Virus record (IMG/VR): IMGVR_UViG_3300010270_000394
Span: 1-64,000 of that record
Reading direction: 5' to 3' (one strand)
Source: a virus
Taxonomy: Duplodnaviria > Caudoviricetes
Length of the DNA: 64,000 nt
The translations under genes were made by a program, and so were the position numbers. The notes under the pieces were generated by a model. It was not told the DNA's origin, searched no databases, and worked only from the letters and a program-made list of their open reading frames with translations. Shown here in pieces: positions 3,434 through 44,207 of this stretch (the stretch's first letter is position 1; every line of letters starts with the position of its first letter).

Positions 3434-5406
3434 TACATCACGCTATCCTTTGAAAGAACGTTGTACCACTTACGGCGATTGAATTCGCGCTTGCGAATTT
3501 TCTGATAGTTGCTCACTGGCGTATAGAATCCGACGACTCGCGCGTAGGTATCTGCTTTGGGTTTTCCGCAGATCGGGCAGTTTTCCGTTCCGATGAATGC
3601 GTGTTTGTCCTCGCATACGCTGATCTTGGTTGTGAAAGCAAAGTAGATTACGCCATGAGAGGCGACGTAGTTGAGCATATCCCACGCGGTTTCGGAGTTA
3701 GGGAAGCGGTTCTCGATGTTAATATGGGCGATGCAGCCGCCGCCGCACTGCTTATCAAACAGATTACCAAGACGGCATTTCTCCGCAATCGTGCATTTCT
3801 CAGTCAGCGGAATCCACTGATTCGAGTAAATGAAATATTTGTCCTGCTCATACAGCAGATTATCGGCTTGGCAGATGACACCGGCGCAGTTTTCGGCAGG
3901 AATCATTTCGAGGTTGTAACTGAATTCATTCGTGAAGTTATCCTTTACGTCATTGATGACATTAAGGATGTTGGTTGCAAACGAAACAGCCTCGTCCGAA
4001 TAGCTCTTGTTTCCAAGTTCGTCTGTCTGGATCAGTCCAAACAAATCCATAACCTCGTACATACCAATTGCTCCGACCGTGCAGAACTGCTTTTCAAGTT
4101 CCACAGCGCCATCCGTATAGTTTGGGAGCAATCCCTTTTCGATGTTGCGCTTGAGGATATGGCGCATGGAATAAAGTGCTTTGCAGTCAAGCGTTACGCG
4201 GTCACGCAGAATCTTGAGATACTTCCCCTGATCGAATTCGCTCTCATACGCGATACGAACAAGATTGATCGTACTAACGCGGCAAGAACCGATGGAAAGC
4301 GCAGTACCGCCGATGGAGTTGATAAAAGCATCGAGTTTGTTGGTGTCGGACAGAAGGCGGCAACAGTTGGAGAGCGTTCCAACATTGTCACTGACAAAGA
4401 AGTTGGAATCAGACCACTTGATGTTATGATCGCTGCACCAACGGGCAAAGTCCTCGTCCACAAACTTTCCGTTCTGATACAGCAGAGAATAAGTCAGCAC
4501 CGGATAGGTGAACATATTGACCTCACGGATTTCGCTGACGACATCCATGAAAATCTTCTGACACTCGATCAAGTCCTCAATGTGGTCAATGGCAAGCGTT
4601 CCGTCAGGGAATTCAACGCCGCCGAACAGGGCTTCCAGATACGGACGGTCAAAGATGGAAATGTTTGTGAAAGCAGACTGGTCAATTCGCAAGAACGGCT
4701 GATTGAGACGGTAAATCAGCTTTTGGAATGACTGCCGCAGATGATATTCCGGACTCTTGATGTAATATCCGTCCTCAACGTCCTTTTTCCAGAAATACCA
4801 CGCCCAAATCAAAATATTTGGCATTCCGACCGCGCCGCTCTGACGGTTTGAGAGGAATGAAACAAATTCGATCACGTCATCAAAATACGTCGTCAGGTGC
4901 TTGGGTGCTTGGTTGTTATAGACCTTATGGCTCTTTACAACCTGTTCGTCGTGGTCGTAATACGAAACATCACGGTTCAGGAAAAACAAACCTTCCGTAG
5001 CAAGCCGCGTAAAGTCATTCGCCCAGCAGTACGGGAAATAACTTGCGGTCGTGCTGTCATTGAGGTAAAAGCCCTTGGAAAATTCCTGCTCCAACCACGC
5101 CTTTGCCGTGCGGAGTCCCCACTTCTTTTTCATTTCATAGAAAATCTTGTTGAGTCCAAAGAGCTTATCTTCACTCTTGGCTTTCTCCGAAATAAAGCTG
5201 CGAATGTCTTTGTGATTGGCATTGGCATTCGGATCAATGCTTGCGTCGGCAACGGTGTCGTGGTCAATAAAATTCTCAATGAACTCCGAAAAATCGAGCT
5301 GGCTCGGATGGACACCGTTGATGTACTCAAAGTCCTCTCCATACTTTTTCTTCAAATCTTCAAGGCATCGCTCAAAATCCTTGGAAAGATTCAACTTAAT
5401 ATTCAA
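3433..5406 (-). CDS. nrdD: Class III anaerobic ribonucleotide reductase (no ATP cone)
   Basis: SNCCRL, PAEN, CPICG zinc site and RVVGFY glycyl-radical motif. Confidence 0.95.
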   Translation of the reverse strand: MNIKLNLSKDFERCLEDLKKKYGEDFEYINGVHPSQLDFSEFIENFIDHDTVADASIDPNANANHKDIRSFISEKAKSEDKLFGLNKIFYEMKKKWGLRTAKAWLEQEFSKGFYLNDSTTASYFPYCWANDFTRLATEGLFFLNRDVSYYDHDEQVVKSHKVYNNQAPKHLTTYFDDVIEFVSFLSNRQSGAVGMPNILIWAWYFWKKDVEDGYYIKSPEYHLRQSFQKLIYRLNQPFLRIDQSAFTNISIFDRPYLEALFGGVEFPDGTLAIDHIEDLIECQKIFMDVVSEIREVNMFTYPVLTYSLLYQNGKFVDEDFARWCSDHNIKWSDSNFFVSDNVGTLSNCCRLLSDTNKLDAFINSIGGTALSIGSCRVSTINLVRIAYESEFDQGKYLKILRDRVTLDCKALYSMRHILKRNIEKGLLPNYTDGAVELEKQFCTVGAIGMYEVMDLFGLIQTDELGNKSYSDEAVSFATNILNVINDVKDNFTNEFSYNLEMIPAENCAGVICQADNLLYEQDKYFIYSNQWIPLTEKCTIAEKCRLGNLFDKQCGGGCIAHINIENRFPNSETAWDMLNYVASHGVIYFAFTTKISVCEDKHAFIGTENCPICGKPKADTYARVVGFYTPVSNYQKIRKREFNRRKWYNVLSKDSVM

Positions 5407-30415: not shown

Positions 30416-32611
30416 TTATGTTCCGGAAAGTAAACGCGATTGGAACATATCACGAAGTTCGATGATATGCGTTGGATGATTTTCCTGATTGTAAAGTTCC
30501 TGAAGGAAACCATAGAACTGATTTTCAAACGGCGTAACCAAACCGCCCATCCATTTGTAATGACCGCTGCGGAATACGGACTGTGCAACGCCGCGCAGTT
30601 TCTTCCACTCGGTATAATACCAGCTCTTGACCTTGACCATAAAACCAACGCTGTCCTCGACAACAAAGCCTTCAATCTCATGACCATCCAGCAGATAATC
30701 TTCCGCAGTTACATCAGCATACCACGCCTTAAATTCAGACCACGTTTGCAACCGTGCTGCAAGTTTCTTAGGTTGGAATCCATAGCGAGAGGCAACCATG
30801 AGAACCATATCATAAGAATACTTCTCAAAGTTAAGTTGGTTTTTAACAATGTCCAGCAGAAACAAATTTGACTGATCATACTTGATGATATGGGGATCAC
30901 GCTCCATATCAACACACTCAAATACAAGCGTCGCGTTCTCATTTTTGAGGAAGTTCTTCAATTCATGATAATTCATAACGCGCTTCTGGAACGCCTCGCG
31001 CATCCATCCGGCAAATTCTCCCGTAGGATCAGACTTGCTTGTGATGAAAAAGTCGTCTTTTTCTGCGTCATAAGATACCATGCCTAGGAATCCGTTTTCC
31101 TTGACATATGCCGTGACAGGAAACGTCAACTTATGCTGAAGCATGGGAAATTTGGTTTCGGGACGCTCGTTGACCTTAAAAAACTTTTCGTAACTGCGGC
31201 AGATAACTTTTCCTTCCGCTGTGTTGATGAATAAACCACGCGCCTTAATCGTCTGCGCATTCCACTGTTTTTCATAAAACGCATCGCGCGTAAAGTTGAA
31301 CGAAGAAATATCGCCGAAACGCTTTTCCATGATGTAGCGGTTTTTCCGCATCTTATCGACGACTTCCATTACATCTTGTTCGCACTGTTCGTACTGCTCC
31401 GGAATCTCCTGCTTAACCTCGCGGAATACCTTATTTGACAGCTCAACGGTATGAAATCCGGTTTCATCAAGCGTGACGACGCGAAGATTACCACCAAACT
31501 CCACCTTACCTTCCAGATTGAAACAACGCTCCGACATTCTGACAGGAGAATCTTCGGTGTTGCGATGACCGAAAATCTGATAACAATTGTTCGGCATTGT
31601 GTTATCCCACGTCTGCGCGACCTGTTCATATTCGGAATATCTGCCAACGCCGCGAATCATCTGATCCGTTGCAACCTTAGTCAAATCGGAAGAAGGATAC
31701 GGCAGCAAACTCAAACCGGCGTGAGTAACAAGAACTGTCTTGTCACCATAAGTATAATAAGCACACTGACCAAATTTCCGGTAGAGCATACGAACCATCT
31801 TCGGATCGACTTCCGCTTTTTCGAGTTCCTTTCGTGTCACCTTTTCAAACTCCGGCGAAAGCGACGTACCGCCGTGCGCCCAATACCAAAGCCAACGTTC
31901 ATGATTTCCCTCAAGCATAATGACGTTCGACTTATCCATGATGCTGTAAAGAAACTGGATAACAGCAACATTCTCCATGCCGCGATCAATATAGTCTCCG
32001 CAGAAAATATACAGTTCGTCGTCCTTTAGTCCGTCTTTCAAATACTCCTGCAAGATAGTGTTACATCCGTGAATGTCTCCAATGTGATGAATTTTCTTAT
32101 AGTTGGAGAAATCCAAAGGATGAATCCAGATGCTTTCTAATTCATCCGGCATAATCCTCTTAACTCCGGCAGGAATCGGCTGCGTCGCAAAACGCGCGTA
32201 CATACGCTCGATTACTTCATCCGGAACGATTTTGTAGGACGTTCTCATATGATTACGACGTTTGCATTCCTCAATCGGAACGTCCGTGAAATCAACGCAG
32301 TACATACGATAGCGGTAAGTCTTTGCCAAATCCTTGTAGCGGTTGATCTCCTGTGTTTTGGAATTCGTCGCGTCAACGACAACAAACTCTCCGCGCTTCA
32401 TGCGCTCTTCCAGAATGTCAAACAACAGATTCCAAACTTTTTTGTCGTTGCTTTGCGAAATCTGCATTGTACCGTCCGGCATCTGAACCGGCGACTGGAT
32501 CATCAAGCGGATGTTGTCTGCGGAAATTGAATATTGTTCCAGATTGTTGTCTTTGATGAACGTGGACTTACCAACGCCGGGTGCGCCGCGCATCAACAGT
32601 AAAACTCTCAT
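30416..32611 (-). CDS. Polynucleotide kinase / metallophosphoesterase / RNA ligase fusion
   Basis: GAPGVGKS; GDIHG, GDYIDRG, GNHE; KENG, EGFV, KVK ligase motifs. Confidence 0.92.
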   Translation of the reverse strand: MRVLLLMRGAPGVGKSTFIKDNNLEQYSISADNIRLMIQSPVQMPDGTMQISQSNDKKVWNLLFDILEERMKRGEFVVVDATNSKTQEINRYKDLAKTYRYRMYCVDFTDVPIEECKRRNHMRTSYKIVPDEVIERMYARFATQPIPAGVKRIMPDELESIWIHPLDFSNYKKIHHIGDIHGCNTILQEYLKDGLKDDELYIFCGDYIDRGMENVAVIQFLYSIMDKSNVIMLEGNHERWLWYWAHGGTSLSPEFEKVTRKELEKAEVDPKMVRMLYRKFGQCAYYTYGDKTVLVTHAGLSLLPYPSSDLTKVATDQMIRGVGRYSEYEQVAQTWDNTMPNNCYQIFGHRNTEDSPVRMSERCFNLEGKVEFGGNLRVVTLDETGFHTVELSNKVFREVKQEIPEQYEQCEQDVMEVVDKMRKNRYIMEKRFGDISSFNFTRDAFYEKQWNAQTIKARGLFINTAEGKVICRSYEKFFKVNERPETKFPMLQHKLTFPVTAYVKENGFLGMVSYDAEKDDFFITSKSDPTGEFAGWMREAFQKRVMNYHELKNFLKNENATLVFECVDMERDPHIIKYDQSNLFLLDIVKNQLNFEKYSYDMVLMVASRYGFQPKKLAARLQTWSEFKAWYADVTAEDYLLDGHEIEGFVVEDSVGFMVKVKSWYYTEWKKLRGVAQSVFRSGHYKWMGGLVTPFENQFYGFLQELYNQENHPTHIIELRDMFQSRLLSGT

Positions 32612-32725: not shown

Positions 32726-33526
32726 TTAGGAAGCGAAGCCGGGCGCAACGCCAATGCTAGAGCCGGAGGAGTTGTCGTTCGCGCTCCCGTTGGTGTACAC
32801 AAAGCAAAAGTACGTCGAGGCGGACGCATTAGGAGAACGCAGCCACATCCAACGTTGATCACCGTCGTCGTCTACCATGCCATACGGAACATTCTCCTGA
32901 CGGAACAACTCATACCAATGACCTTCGCCGCCGTTGGAATAAATCTTGCGACCGAATTGCTCCTGCTCCGACATGAGCCAAACCAAATCCTTTGTCTGGA
33001 TCAGGTTTCCGTTCTCATTCGCGGTCAGCTTCCAAACGGGCTTAATGATCGCGCGGAGTTCATCAGACATAAGATTGTAGAATTCTCCGTTGAGCGTATA
33101 ACGGCAATCCGTCTTTTCCCATCCGCACGGTTCGCTGTCTCTCCGCATTACCATGTCGTCTTTGTAGACACGCGCCATGCCCCAAGAGATCGGCGCTTTG
33201 CCGCTGTCATCCGCAAGATCGTCATGATCAAAGCCAAGAATGCGATACTCCGCAACGTAGCCATTTTTCATGTAATCTTTCTTCGTCGCGCCAAGCGCAA
33301 AGAACTTACGCGCGTTTCCAGCAAGACCGATCTTGTTGATTACACTCCACGGAATGTTGTCAAGGTTCTTCAGCGGAAAATTCATCGCGGCAAACGCAAA
33401 ATCGGCGATTGTTCCAAAATCCGAATTCACATCCGGAAAGGAAATCGTCACCGTATCACCGTCTTGTTTAAACTGCATAGAAGGAAAGCGCTTGATGATT
33501 TCAGAATCAATTACAACCTTACTCAT
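32726..33526 (-). CDS. DUF6273/C-type-lectin-fold protein, probable DGR target
   Basis: RILGFDHD, LMSEQE, WMWLRSP...FCFV...GVAPGF C-terminus rich in NNC codons. Confidence 0.78.
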   Translation of the reverse strand: MSKVVIDSEIIKRFPSMQFKQDGDTVTISFPDVNSDFGTIADFAFAAMNFPLKNLDNIPWSVINKIGLAGNARKFFALGATKKDYMKNGYVAEYRILGFDHDDLADDSGKAPISWGMARVYKDDMVMRRDSEPCGWEKTDCRYTLNGEFYNLMSDELRAIIKPVWKLTANENGNLIQTKDLVWLMSEQEQFGRKIYSNGGEGHWYELFRQENVPYGMVDDDGDQRWMWLRSPNASASTYFCFVYTNGSANDNSSGSSIGVAPGFAS

Positions 33527-33608
33527 TTATCCATAATCCTTTCTAAAATATTGTCGGACACTCTGCCAAGCATCGGATTTTTCCTTGAGGAATTTTCCGA
33601 TACTTGAC

Positions 33609-33634
33609 AGAATGCCCGACGTATCGGGCATTCT
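33609..33634. terminator. Stable hairpin 3' of the large RNA (terminator or processing site)
   Basis: 11 bp perfect stem with UACG loop on the minus strand; no clear U tract. Confidence 0.55.
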
Positions 33635-33643
33635 ATATCGTCA

Positions 33644-34038
33644 ATTCGCTGCGCAACAGCCTTGTGGTTCGCTGTCGGGCAAGCATAACAATCCCAAACC
33701 ATATACCAAGGATTTGATGCAGATTTGCTCTTTTTTACTTAATAATTGAGCTTTGAAGATTCAAATGAACTTTGAGAGTTGAGCATTGAACCTTCAACTT
33801 TCAGCCTTGAACTTTACAGTAGATTTTATCTTTTCGATCTTCGCCGTTTCAATATTACGGCTAACGAAAAGATTCTTTTCTTCATATAAGTATTCAAAAA
33901 TCCAATATTTTGAATCATTATAGAGGGATTAAAAGTCCCACTGTAATCAAAGGCAGCGGCGTTTTTATTGTTTTCGTCTCAGAACGCCGCCATAAACTCA
34001 GGCGTGTTATGGTTTACAGTTTTCGTTACGCAGCGAAT
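33644..34038 (-). ncRNA. Candidate ~395 nt large structured RNA
   Basis: 14 bp terminal stem, second long-range helix, several local hairpins, heptamer array, no convincing ORF. Confidence 0.7.
33746..33813. repeat. Degenerate 7 nt tandem repeat, 9 units plus one partial
   Basis: ttgagct ttgaaga ttcaa atgaact ttgagag ttgagca ttgaacc ttcaact ttcagcc ttgaact. Confidence 0.8.
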
Positions 34039-34048
34039 GGATGATCGC

Positions 34049-34687
34049 TTAGTATTCGATCTCGATGGTGGTAGTCGCGTTCGAGACAGACAGCGCCGCA
34101 TCCACCTCCGGCATAAAGGCGTTGATCTTGTCGTCCAGTTCCGCGATCTTCTTCTCAACGGCAAGCGGATCAATCAACTCCATCGTGTTCGCCTTGATGT
34201 AGTTGTTCATCGTGGAAGTGTATTCCTCGCTGCCCTTCTTGACCTCGCCACCGGCATTGAGTCCAGTAACAAACGCTTCTGCCTTGGACTGAAGAGAATC
34301 GTTGTTCTTTTCGAGCGCCGTCTTTGCCTTGCCGAGCTGAAGCGTCAGCATATCGCGGAGCTGGATATAATGCTCCATGCCGTGATTCTTCATGTCGATG
34401 GCTTCCACGACGGTCATCCTCTCGCCGCCGATCTCAACCTCCGTCTTGGCATTGGAAAGCGTGACGGCGCGTTTGATCGCATTGCGGCGCTTGATCAGGT
34501 CAGATGCCTTGTCGTAAGATGCCTTGGCAAGCTCTTTGAACTCGTCGGCAGACTTACCGCTGATCTTGTCCTGATTGTTCTTCTTGGTCGTGATGTAGCT
34601 GCCACTGGTGATGGCGTTGCTGATCCGGCTGTCAAGAACCTTCAGCTCCGCAAGCGCCTTATGGACGGTCATAGTCTCAGTGTTCAT
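34049..34687 (-). CDS. Coiled-coil protein resembling the DIP1984/DUF6847 family
   Basis: TVHKALAELK..., SNAKTEV...MTVVEAI, EVDAALSVSNATT; AAGGAG RBS. Confidence 0.75.
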   Translation of the reverse strand: MNTETMTVHKALAELKVLDSRISNAITSGSYITTKKNNQDKISGKSADEFKELAKASYDKASDLIKRRNAIKRAVTLSNAKTEVEIGGERMTVVEAIDMKNHGMEHYIQLRDMLTLQLGKAKTALEKNNDSLQSKAEAFVTGLNAGGEVKKGSEEYTSTMNNYIKANTMELIDPLAVEKKIAELDDKINAFMPEVDAALSVSNATTTIEIEY

Positions 34688-35775: not shown

Positions 35776-36126
35776 TCAGGCACAAGAAAGACCAAGACTT
35801 ACCAGCATGGCACGATTGATCTCGTCCATTTTACTGTCACTCACTCTGCCAACGAACCGAATTAACCGGCTCTTATCAATGGTCTTGAGTTGTTCGAGCA
35901 AAACGGTGGAATCCATTTTCAGGTTTCCTTCTCCGCTCTGAATATCAATATGTGTCGGCAAACGCTTTTTCAGCTTGGAGGTCATGACGGCAACGATGAC
36001 GGTTGGACTGTGAAAATTTCCGACATTGTTCTGCACGATAATGACCGGACGCATACCGCCTTGTTCGCAACCATAGGCGGGACTCAAATCGGCGTAATAA
36101 ATATCTCCCCTCTTAATAGTTTTCAT
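35776..36126 (-). CDS. mazF: MazF/PemK endoribonuclease toxin (no adjacent MazE)
   Basis: RGDIYYADL, EQGGMRPVIIVQNNVGN, LEQLKTIDKSRL. Confidence 0.92.
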   Translation of the reverse strand: MKTIKRGDIYYADLSPAYGCEQGGMRPVIIVQNNVGNFHSPTVIVAVMTSKLKKRLPTHIDIQSGEGNLKMDSTVLLEQLKTIDKSRLIRFVGRVSDSKMDEINRAMLVSLGLSCA

Positions 36127-36168: not shown

Positions 36169-36197
36169 ATTATAGCAAAGAGGGGCAGAAGAGTCAA
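36169..36197 (-). promoter_or_regulatory. Sigma-A promoter of mazF flanked by motif copies
   Basis: TTGACT-17-TATAAT; motif at 36203-36218 and a partial copy at 36158. Confidence 0.75.
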
Positions 36198-42964: not shown

Positions 42965-43196
42965 AGTTTTCCTCACTTTCAAATCCAGCAATGACACATT
43001 GCATTATTTGTTGCTCTTTTTTCTTTTGTCGATATAGATTTGCTTGTCGCAGTTGATTTTTCTCTGCGTCATGCAGCATTTTCACAAGAATATCAATTGC
43101 TTCTTCCTCGTCTTTATTATTGTATCCAACGTGAAAATTCTCCATCGCTTCAATCGCCATGTTTAACGCAACAATTTTCTTTTTACTCAAGTACAT
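42954..43196 (-). CDS. Hypothetical protein
   Basis: GAGG RBS, co-oriented. Confidence 0.55.
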   Translation of the reverse strand: MYLSKKKIVALNMAIEAMENFHVGYNNKDEEEAIDILVKMLHDAEKNQLRQANLYRQKKKEQQIMQCVIAGFESEENYEQ

Positions 43197-43388
43197 GGTT
43201 ATTCCCTCACAGCGAAGCGATATACAAATTAGCAACTTGTTTCATAGTCAAATCCTGAAAAAGCCCATCGTCTTTTGCCGCTCTCGCAAGTCCAAGAATG
43301 AACCCATACAGCAAATATAGTTTTTCGTTATCTGTCACATTCAATCACTTCCTTGTAATTATACTTATTGGAGTAAAAAACACTACTC

Positions 43389-44207
43389 CTATTCGTATTG
43401 CTGAAGCATATTCTCCACCTTGGAGATTTGCGCCTGATCCATGATGCGACCGCCGCGATTGAGCATCAGGAAGAGGTTGAGAATGTCCTTTTTCTCCGCG
43501 TTGCGAACTTCCGCGACGGAAATATTGTGATTCTTGAACGTGCATTTATCCGTTCCGGAAAGCTGCGAGAAGGTCTTGCCGCGATAGGTGATCCTGTCCT
43601 CGTAGAATTCCAGAAGCGTATTCAAGCGCTGCTTGCCGTCCAGAATTTCATAGGAATATCCGTCTGCTTTCCAATCCGTATCGCTGCGATGGATCAGGAC
43701 AAATTTTCCAATGTCGATGTTCTTGAAAACGCTGTCCAAAAGATACTCTTTGTCCGCGCCGTTCCAAACAAAGTCACGCTGATAGTCCGGATTCATCTGG
43801 ATTCCAAAGAAATAAGCGCGATGAAGCAGGGATTCAATGGTCTGATTGTTAAAATTCAGGCGAATATCGTCATTTTCCGTGAATTTCGTGTCCTCAATCG
43901 CTTCGCGGGAGCGGACTTCCATCCATCTTGCAAGGCGATAGGTGTTATAAGTATAGGGGTGTCCGTAGTTGTTGTTCGTCGCTTCGCAGTACAGAAGATA
44001 GGCTTTTCCATCTGCAAGAACTTCTTCCACGACCGCGCTGTTGAGCGCTCCAAAAAGAACCGAATCTCCAACATTGAAATAATACATCGGTTCTGGCGTG
44101 AATTTGATCTCCTGCTCCAACTCACGATAACAATGCTGTTTTTCCTGCGCGAGTCGTTCTTCCGGAGTAAGCGGTTTCTTTTCAACTTTTCGTGCCATTA
44201 TTGCCAT
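43389..44207 (-). CDS. DUF262 (GmrS/ParB-like) domain protein
   Basis: PDYQRDFVW, ILDGKQRL, FLMLNRGG. Confidence 0.85.
   Translation of the reverse strand: MAIMARKVEKKPLTPEERLAQEKQHCYRELEQEIKFTPEPMYYFNVGDSVLFGALNSAVVEEVLADGKAYLLYCEATNNNYGHPYTYNTYRLARWMEVRSREAIEDTKFTENDDIRLNFNNQTIESLLHRAYFFGIQMNPDYQRDFVWNGADKEYLLDSVFKNIDIGKFVLIHRSDTDWKADGYSYEILDGKQRLNTLLEFYEDRITYRGKTFSQLSGTDKCTFKNHNISVAEVRNAEKKDILNLFLMLNRGGRIMDQAQISKVENMLQQYE

Follow-up and report, generated by a model that had tools for sequence, protein, structure and literature searches.

A large, doubly pseudoknotted phage RNA linked to the gene for a helical protein

Introduction

Few large non-coding RNAs of unknown function have folds supported by covariation, and every one of them has led to new biology (GOLLD, ROOL, OLE, HEARO, RAGATH-18). 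GOLLD and ROOL are large, intricate and associated with phages and prophages, often beside tRNA genes (Kretsch et al. 2025, PMC12286853). Phage K has two abundant non-coding RNAs, lnc001 and lnc002, that also lie beside tRNA genes (PMC9241854). In the bacterial Ro60/Rsr system, Y RNAs are genetically associated with a protein gene, and in some cases with genes for RNA repair (PMC4201824). RAGATH-27 (RF03100) belongs to a set of 224 candidate RNAs (Weinberg et al. 2017, PMC5737381), a paper whose main text does not mention it, and the motifs of Fremin et al. (2023) are only 29–151 nucleotides (nt) long. Here we describe an RNA of about 395 nt on the minus strand of a 64-kilobase (kb) viral stretch, directly downstream of a gene for a helical protein of 212 amino acids (aa). 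The stretch (hereafter the window) comprises positions 1 to 64,000 of the IMG/VR phage record IMGVR_UViG_3300010270_000394, which is 101 kb long.

A first-pass annotation, made from the letters of the window, had proposed an ornate non-coding RNA at this place and could not assign it to a named family. That last point no longer holds. The first ~83–86 nt of the RNA match RAGATH-27 at model positions 1–86 (39.8 bits, E ~1e-3; cut-off 76.1), with the conserved 5' strand matched at high posterior probability and the model's hairpin of 7 base pairs (bp) formed (GGCGGCG/CGCCGC). The window copy does not reach the gathering score, but relatives do (L016, 97.1 bits; L060, 92.1 bits; L005, 77.2 bits). 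The window aligns end to end with these three and shares covarying helices with them (alignment A2, below). Because these aligned relatives pass the cut-off, RAGATH-27 is the 5' end of a larger RNA.

An Rfam search including ROOL and GOLLD had been suggested as a check. Neither of the two models matched, either across the window at gathering score or in 33400–34200 at E up to 10; RAGATH-27 appeared as the sub-threshold match at the 5' end. At gathering score the whole window contains two tRNAs only. In the searchable literature we found no mention of RAGATH-27 and no record of a protein partner, presence in T5 or full fold for it, and searches on RAGATH-27, DUF6847, T5 non-coding RNAs and phage ribonucleoproteins (RNPs) gave no description of the full RNA. 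What is already known is the 5' motif (from Rfam) and the general kind, a large ornate phage RNA beside tRNAs, as with GOLLD and ROOL. Our searches turned up no earlier account of the RNA in full, of its pair of pseudoknots, its heptad array and its constant protein partner, or of its presence in T5.

Results

Fold and covariation of the RNA

The segment 34038–33644 (minus strand) is a genuine, conserved, intricately folded RNA. It lies in a gap of 522 nt between the 212-aa gene and the next gene (32726–33526), where about 520 nt free of a convincing open reading frame had already been noted, and minus is also the sense of the genes around it. The gap folds with an energy of -167.7 kcal/mol, far better than shuffles (z = -7.6). 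For the consensus structure we used an alignment (A2) of the window and 20 diverged relatives, with representatives under 93 per cent identical. The gene and the elements of the RNA are as follows, in 5' to 3' order.

34049–34687, minus: gene for the 212-aa helical protein (phrog_1491; resembles PDB 3kdq in fold), the RNA's constant partner on the upstream side
33644–34038, minus: the structured RNA, ~395 nt, bounded by the two arms of P1
34024–34038, minus: 5' arm of P1, the closing helix, which pairs with 33644–33658
34004–34023, minus: conserved single strand J, with invariant columns in A2
33955–34003, minus: H-type pseudoknot PK1, made of stems S1 and S2
34003–33997/33982–33976, minus: S1, with two mismatches in the window
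33991–33983/33963–33955, minus: S2, the stem of the RAGATH-27 model
33820–33954, minus: lineage-variable middle region, with local hairpins and no conserved columns in A2
33722–33819, minus: AAAG heptad array, consensus ~UUYAAAGWUU
33659–33717, minus: 3' domain (Pa, Pb and Pc), where covariance model R1 scores 99.7 bits
33711–33707/33664–33660, minus: Pa, 100 per cent paired
33701–33697/33669–33665, minus: Pb, 90 per cent paired, with 3/3 pairs covarying
33695–33693/33679–33677, minus: Pc, 85 per cent paired
33644–33658, minus: 3' arm of P1, with a near-invariant GGCUG directly before it

The structure written on A2 has 41 pairs in six helices, or 819 pair cells. Of these cells 95.0 per cent are paired, compared with 77 per cent in shuffles and 32–43 per cent when the partners are slid. 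Compensatory changes on both sides occur in 25 of the 41 pairs, and none of 500 shuffles matched the observed values. The ornate RNA proposed after the gene is real, and its conserved, covarying structure recurs downstream of protein homologs. Two G-U pairs are invariant (A2 columns 20/528 and 13/535). As these would be A-C mismatches on the other strand, the RNA has the sense of the upstream gene. We regard it as nearly certain that this is a genuine family of RNAs with a link to the 212-aa type of gene.

Three long-range interactions join the ends of the RNA: P1, PK1 and a pairing between the 5' strand and a 3' loop, PK2. P1, a 15-bp closing helix, is the best supported in the family, with 99.3 per cent of cells paired and both sides changed at 7 of 14 pairs across the 20 diverged sequences. 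It includes the 14-bp helix (34038–34025/33657–33644) that had been seen in the window. J, which follows its 5' arm, starts with AAAAC; together with the last two bases of P1 this gives a CGAAAAC motif, and AAAC comes next.

In PK1, the two strands of S2 flank the 3' strand of S1; loop 1 is rich in U and loop 3 in A. All seven pairs of S1 covary in A2. S2 had been noticed as a local stem (33956–63/33983–90) and is the one stem that Rfam's RAGATH-27 model contains. A pseudoknot search with no constraints gave too much noise in AT-rich sequence, and a topology-constrained search was used in its place. With that search, the crossing topology recurs in most lineages, with a mean of 14.2 bp versus 7.9 in shuffles.

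PK2 was absent from the first reading. It joins 34011–34005 (CAUAACA, in J) to the loop of Pc at 33690–33684 (UGUUAUG), with 92.5 per cent of A2 cells paired and 5/8 pairs covarying. Other lineages carry the variants UACAAUC/GAUUGUA, UAUAAUC/GAUUAUA, UACAACU/AGUUGUA, UGUAAUCG/CGAUUACA and CGUAAUUG/CAAUUACG, and T5-like and Klebsiella phages have AUCUUA/UAAGAU and AUCUUG/CAAGAU. Among the other stems picked out in the window, 33660–68/33705–11 is the conserved helix Pa. The second long-range helix (34008–15/33696–703) did not hold up: it pairs in the window's clade only, in 68 per cent of cells and with no covariation, and its bases are used partly by the conserved PK2 and Pb instead. The stem at 33828–36/33865–73 falls in the lineage-variable middle and is not conserved either.

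Linkage of the RNA to the upstream gene

Three IMG/VR contigs with a protein 67 per cent identical to that of the window share the downstream RNA, and the pairing of P1 survives two double and two wobble changes among them. We then searched with a degenerate 26-nt pattern derived from the conserved 5' strand, which returned 113 viral stretches. In every stretch with a 13/13 closing helix (~85), a homolog of the protein ends 10–35 nt before the start of the RNA. Chance matches to the pattern among the viral stretches have neither helix nor protein. The same pattern gave 120 matches in cellular genomes, none with the closing helix or the protein, which serves as a negative control and not as proof of absence from prophages.

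Selection by the protein alone gave the same answer. Eighty loci chosen in this way provided 66 distinct downstream regions, and the RNA is present in all 66. A simple test detected ~56 of them, allowing mismatches added 8 and the covariance model added 2 (L190 and L193). In these last two, extra DNA lies between the gene and the RNA, which is found a few hundred to ~1000 nt downstream. The insert, in two gut-phage lineages, opens with a ribosome-binding site and an ATG, and the 3' domain of the RNA is intact. Protein-selected loci also show a CAAGGC ahead of the P1 3' arm.

Searching cellular genomes with the protein identified one contig, from a Deinococcales metagenome-assembled genome (MAG), with a weak RNA match at the expected place. 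A blastn search of the RNA against 50,697 phage records gave no match, because the family is too diverged for a plain DNA search.

The RNA in isolate phages

We examined nine isolates with proteins 30–38 per cent identical to the window's. The RNA is found in T5, the T5-like phage NBEco001, Bacillus phage Deep Blue, Lactococcus phage 949 and Clostridium phage D-1873, as well as in Vibrio phage AG74, Pseudomonas phage phiPsa381, Klebsiella phage VLCpiM5a and Erwinia phage Deimos-Minion. In all nine, the gene is followed by an unannotated gap of 360–1230 nt. Their common layout is a closing helix with G-U pairs, a CGAAAAC-like strand, a pseudoknot, repeats and the Pa helix followed by GGCUG, and PK2 was also found wherever checked.

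Covariance model R1 of the 3' domain was built from gut-phage sequences only. A second model, R2, also drew on the matches in four isolate phages (NBEco001, Deep Blue, Lactococcus 949 and Clostridium D-1873) and on several further viral contigs. At each locus the top match of the covariance model falls exactly at the expected place. The E-values for the 3' domain, listed here, are rough because calibration was shortened.

Clostridium D-1873: E 4e-7
Bacillus Deep Blue: E 1e-3
Deinococcales MAG contig: E 2e-3
Klebsiella VLCpiM5a: E 3e-3
Pseudomonas phiPsa381: E 8e-3
Vibrio AG74: E 0.03
NBEco001: E 0.04
Erwinia Deimos-Minion: E 0.05
T5: E 0.07, and 7e-8 with R2
Lactococcus 949: E 0.08

The T5 copy lies at 43140–43496 of NC_005859 (minus strand), downstream of T5.085. 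RNA of the T5 type occurs in 451 GenBank phage records, and almost never is a feature annotated under it. In the curated T5 record, the tRNA region (NC_005859 30284–41566) contains eight annotated 'stable RNAs with unknown functions', including the 719-nt RNAX; none of the eight overlaps the RNA at 43140–43496. Clostridium phage D-1873 has a 'drum' RNA (RF02958; 47.7 bits, gathering score 43) ~430 nt downstream of its copy (L123 3398–3505). We also considered lnc001 and lnc002 of phage K (L124 796–1430, L125 680–1833) as relatives and rejected them, as they show no protein homology, heptad array or covariance-model match.

The partner protein

The protein of the window matches phrog_1491 over nearly its full length (E 1e-55; residues 3–211 on profile positions 2–210 of 211). 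The label of this family, 'tail fiber protein', has no support in our results. The T5 homolog adjoins the tRNA region and sits among genes of nucleotide metabolism and replication. Homologs occur in 744 phage records and form 2393 clusters at 50 per cent identity, nearly all of them 205–220 aa long. Conserved positions are H9, K16, R21, R67, N79, D196, N203 and an S-N-A-x-T motif that occurs twice. Searches of Pfam, NCBIfam, PADLOC and PDB sequences placed the window protein in no family, and 60 relatives likewise had no Pfam match.

In the AlphaFold2 model (predicted local distance difference test, pLDDT, 96), long helices form a bundle, and the two termini and a central hairpin build a small sheet. 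Only one fold match exceeds Z 8, the Corynebacterium diphtheriae protein of unknown function in PDB entry 3kdq (VIA-align Z 10.1 over 151/152 residues; Foldseek probability 1.0, E 8e-3), which we take to be DIP1984. The protein had at first been labelled DIP1984/DUF6847-like. At the level of fold this stands. The sequence family does not: Pfam DUF6847 (PF20935) matches neither the window protein nor its 60 relatives (61 family members in all, E up to 0.1), and the sole pointer to that label is an Atlas lead at 0.87. Matches of the helical bundle to BAR, ESCRT-III and Vipp1 folds are weak (Z 6–7.5), and Z below 8 is background for helical proteins.

Heptad array, variable arm and downstream hairpins

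The heptamer array proposed inside the RNA is confirmed in its relatives. Across 41 representatives, spacings between AAAG cores peak at 7 (71 cases), 14, 21 and 28 nt, and the median number of interior copies is 7 compared with ~2 expected. RNAalifold gives no consensus pairs within the array.

In some relatives the variable arm holds tRNA-like or YrlA-like inserts. That of L006 has a near-canonical tRNA fold at 3833–3905, which scores 48.7 bits with the Rfam tRNA model. Its anticodon loop is aberrant, and ARAGORN reports it as 'tRNA-???'; such folds also occur in lineages L043, L013 and L029. Circularly permuted tRNA-like modules, consisting of a T arm, a closed acceptor-like stem and a D arm, are found at L209 2053–2116 and L060 6588–6650 and in L014. 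These permuted inserts, from an Erwinia jumbo phage and gut phages, give sub-threshold YrlA matches (L209, 44.5 bits; L060, 36.3 bits).

Two hairpins follow the RNA in the window.

33610–33633, minus: 11-bp hairpin capped by UACG, just after the RNA and without a U tract
33545–33627, minus: alternative hairpin of ~25 bp, which overlaps the 11-bp hairpin and is the minimum-energy fold

The first is the UNCG-capped hairpin of the original reading, and it is kept with base changes in the relative L001. The second stops immediately short of the next gene's ribosome-binding site and is not conserved in L001. The two are mutually exclusive, and the pair (33545–33633) could be a processing site or a switch. 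The ~25-bp hairpin also drew a match to mir-1329 in permissive Rfam searches; this and matches to snoRNA and aspC models were dismissed as chance, on hairpins or AT-rich sequence.

Transcription and tRNA context

Only 10–35 nt separate the stop codon of the protein gene from the start of the RNA, which leaves no space for a separate promoter. Of 65 loci, 47 have tRNA genes on the same strand no more than 1.5 kb away. Many loci have a tRNA that begins 2–10 nt past the 3' arm, or one whose end is no more than 100 nt from the start codon of the protein. Deep Blue has 16 tRNAs directly upstream, and the window's own tRNAs are 6 kb away. Loci with no following tRNA have an intrinsic terminator instead (Deep Blue, 949, AG74, phiPsa381). 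From the short gap and the terminators and tRNAs after the 3' arm we conclude that the protein gene and the RNA share a transcription unit with the RNA as its 3' portion, often as part of a tRNA operon, in line with the co-transcription first proposed. RNase P could make the 3' end of the RNA where a tRNA follows.

Metatranscriptome contigs confined to the RNA came from three runs in two studies (bovine and sheep gut). One of these, the 421-nt bovine (rumen) contig X1, equals 33626–34045 with two differences and ends inside the 11-bp hairpin. It hints at a discrete RNA species. Since neither strand nor true ends are visible in such contigs, we treat them as a hint and not as proof, and we did not take the lack of metatranscriptome contigs for the flanking genes as evidence of absence.

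Neighbouring genes in the window

Two genes follow the RNA on the same strand.

32726–33526, minus: gene for a DUF6273 protein, the next gene after the gap
30416–32611, minus: gene for a fusion of polynucleotide kinase, phosphatase and RNA ligase

The second of these, two genes downstream of the RNA, encodes 731 aa with a polynucleotide kinase, a metallophosphatase and an RNA ligase of the T4 Rnl1 type (phrog_8238, E 8.5e-222). In Dulem virus 39 (L005), RtcB is encoded ~2.4 kb downstream of the RNA copy. There may be an RNA-repair theme around the RNA, based on these two loci only (Pnkp-Rnl of the window, RtcB of Dulem virus 39).

Two further genes lie upstream of the 212-aa gene; one encodes a protein of 316 aa and unknown function, the other a MazF-like toxin. 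The MazF/PemK-like gene (35776–36126, minus; Pfam E 6.6e-34) is accompanied by a strong promoter-like site at 36197–36169, and no obvious antitoxin open reading frame lies beside it.

Discussion

What the RNA and its partner may do

The reading we prefer, with a probability of about 0.45, is an RNP in which the partner protein, as an oligomer, reads the heptads. The RNA would be co-transcribed with the 212-aa gene, often within a tRNA operon, and would then be processed and accumulate as a separate species of ~400 nt. P1, PK1 and PK2 lock both of its ends into a compact core, and this core displays the lineage-variable arm and an unpaired array of ~7–10 AAAG heptads. We infer that the array may act as a multivalent track for an oligomer of the 3kdq-fold protein, at ~7 nt per subunit, and that the RNP may act on tRNA or RNA metabolism, or on host defence targeting it, during infection. 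For a binding track we count the strict 7-nt periodicity with no conserved pairing and the near-invariance of K16, R21, R67, H9 and the S-N-A-x-T motifs in the protein. Binding of the RNA by the partner protein is plausible.

A broader version of the same proposal is more tentative. It sees an unrecognised RNP of most large phages that carry tRNAs (T5, Bacillus, Lactococcus and jumbo Erwinia phages), in which an oligomer of the 3kdq fold coats the heptads of a doubly pseudoknotted RNA. Such a particle might guard or manage the tRNA pool, or disarm nucleases that target tRNAs.

Several observations weigh against an RNP that reads the heptads. The Vibrio and Lactococcus versions have degenerate, UUAAG-like repeats, which shows that an AAAG core is not obligatory. 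Members of the protein family are acidic, with a median pI of 5.6 (range 4.8–7.7), no RNA-binding family matches the protein, and its sole fold relative, 3kdq, has no known function. The link to tRNAs and RNA repair comes from neighbourhood only. Finally, the contigs show no strand, ends or abundance, and RNA libraries can contain DNA.

Some of these points would also suit an RNA that works without the neighbouring protein, either by self-assembly in the manner of ROOL and GOLLD or as a decoy or sponge, with the protein sharing only its transcription unit or pathway. As a decoy, its heptads or tRNA-like arms might trap a conserved host factor, for example one of translation, a ribonuclease or a defence nuclease aimed at tRNA. 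An acidic protein with no RNA-binding fold fits this explanation, and so do the position of the RNA beside tRNA genes, which it shares with GOLLD and ROOL, and the metatranscriptome contigs, which cover the RNA and not the coding sequence. The tRNA-like and Y-RNA-like modules in the variable arm of several lineages would suit tRNA mimicry. However, gene order and spacing are kept at 30 per cent protein identity, from Bacillota to Pseudomonadota, a pattern not easily explained unless the two are directly tied in function. The RNA never turned up where the protein was missing, and any host target would have to be common to Gram-positive and Gram-negative hosts. On balance we think this explanation less likely than the RNP, yet the most likely of the alternatives.

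The constant position of the RNA immediately 3' of the same gene raises the question of whether it acts in cis, stabilizing or regulating the upstream mRNA or serving as a platform for processing of the tRNA transcript, with no function in trans. Terminators or tRNAs come next in the loci, and in the window two mutually exclusive hairpins follow the RNA, all of which would be expected of such an element. Its size of 300–550 nt, two covarying pseudoknots and periodic array nonetheless far exceed what known 3' stabilizers need. The two loci with DNA inserted after the gene (L190 and L193) still keep the RNA, and the contigs suggest that the RNA outlives the mRNA. A purely cis-acting role is improbable on these grounds.

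We have even less confidence in an antitoxin-like RNA that neutralizes a harmful helical protein, perhaps one acting on membranes, in the manner of type III systems. A repeat-bearing RNA does adjoin a small protein gene here, and the helical bundle has the weak matches to membrane-remodelling folds noted above, at Z values that are background for helical proteins. Unlike in ToxIN-like type III toxin–antitoxin systems, the repeats are 7 nt and not ~36 nt long and lie downstream of the gene rather than upstream. The partner protein has no ribonuclease or other nuclease fold and no PADLOC match, and the module is found in virulent phages such as T5, in early and tRNA regions.

Least credible of all is a DNA-level element (replication-origin iterons, or a packaging or recombination site), which the AT-rich non-coding stretch with short direct repeats might suggest but which conflicts with the covariation data, in that pairing survives through compensatory changes and just one strand has the invariant G-U pairs, and with the matches to an Rfam RNA model and to contigs from RNA libraries.

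Comparison with known systems

The 5' end of the RNA resembles RAGATH-27 in its single strand, UUCAYUG..CGAAAAC..AAAC.AUAA, and in one hairpin (S2). The RAGATH-27 model stops after that hairpin, whereas the family described here runs 200–450 nt further, and the 'unpaired' 5' consensus of the model corresponds in the full RNA to a P1 arm, the PK2 strand and S1. Our results extend RAGATH-27 to an RNA of ~300–550 nt with two pseudoknots and a constant protein partner.

Like GOLLD and ROOL, this is a large, ornate phage RNA near tRNA genes whose function is unknown. It is smaller than they are (300–550 nt), contains a heptad array and has an obligate protein gene as its neighbour; GOLLD and ROOL assemble into multimers of RNA alone and lack a fixed protein partner.

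The likeness to Y RNAs (YrlA) lies in a modular build with the 5' and 3' ends paired in a closing stem, in the permuted tRNA-like module of some relatives, and in the link to a protein gene and at times to RNA-repair genes. The phage RNA is 3–4 times longer than Y RNAs and has pseudoknots and heptads. The YrlA model has no match in the RNA region of the window, where the tRNA-like module is missing, and a search of the 101-kb phage record for TROVE/Ro60 (PF05731) gave no match with positive controls.

tmRNA shares paired ends, a pseudoknot beside a single-stranded central tract, further structured domains and a length of ~360 nt, and some tmRNAs are phage-encoded. In contrast to tmRNA, the phage RNA has no tRNA-like acceptor or T arm at its ends and no SmpB-like partner, and ARAGORN found neither a tmRNA nor tRNA-like ends in the window region (L004). 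A tag reading frame like that of tmRNA is excluded because a 7-nt period is incompatible with a reading frame.

In the trp leader, each subunit of the TRAP oligomer reads one short triplet or tetramer core, and these cores stand at fixed spacing. The heptad array is similar to TRAP targets in repeating short cores at fixed spacing in unpaired RNA, and dissimilar in its 7-nt period, its AAAG core and its place inside a folded non-coding RNA.

With 2393 protein clusters and 451 records with T5-type RNA, the RNA appears to be among the most widespread of its kind in phages. Its presence in T5, with E. coli as host, makes its function directly testable by genetics and cryo-EM. Location in tRNA clusters and tRNA-like inserts tie it to two current questions, what purpose tRNAs serve in phages and how phages escape tRNA-targeting defences. 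If the proposed RNP is real, it would be a new class of viral RNP with a reach comparable to that of tmRNA–SmpB or Ro–Y RNA.

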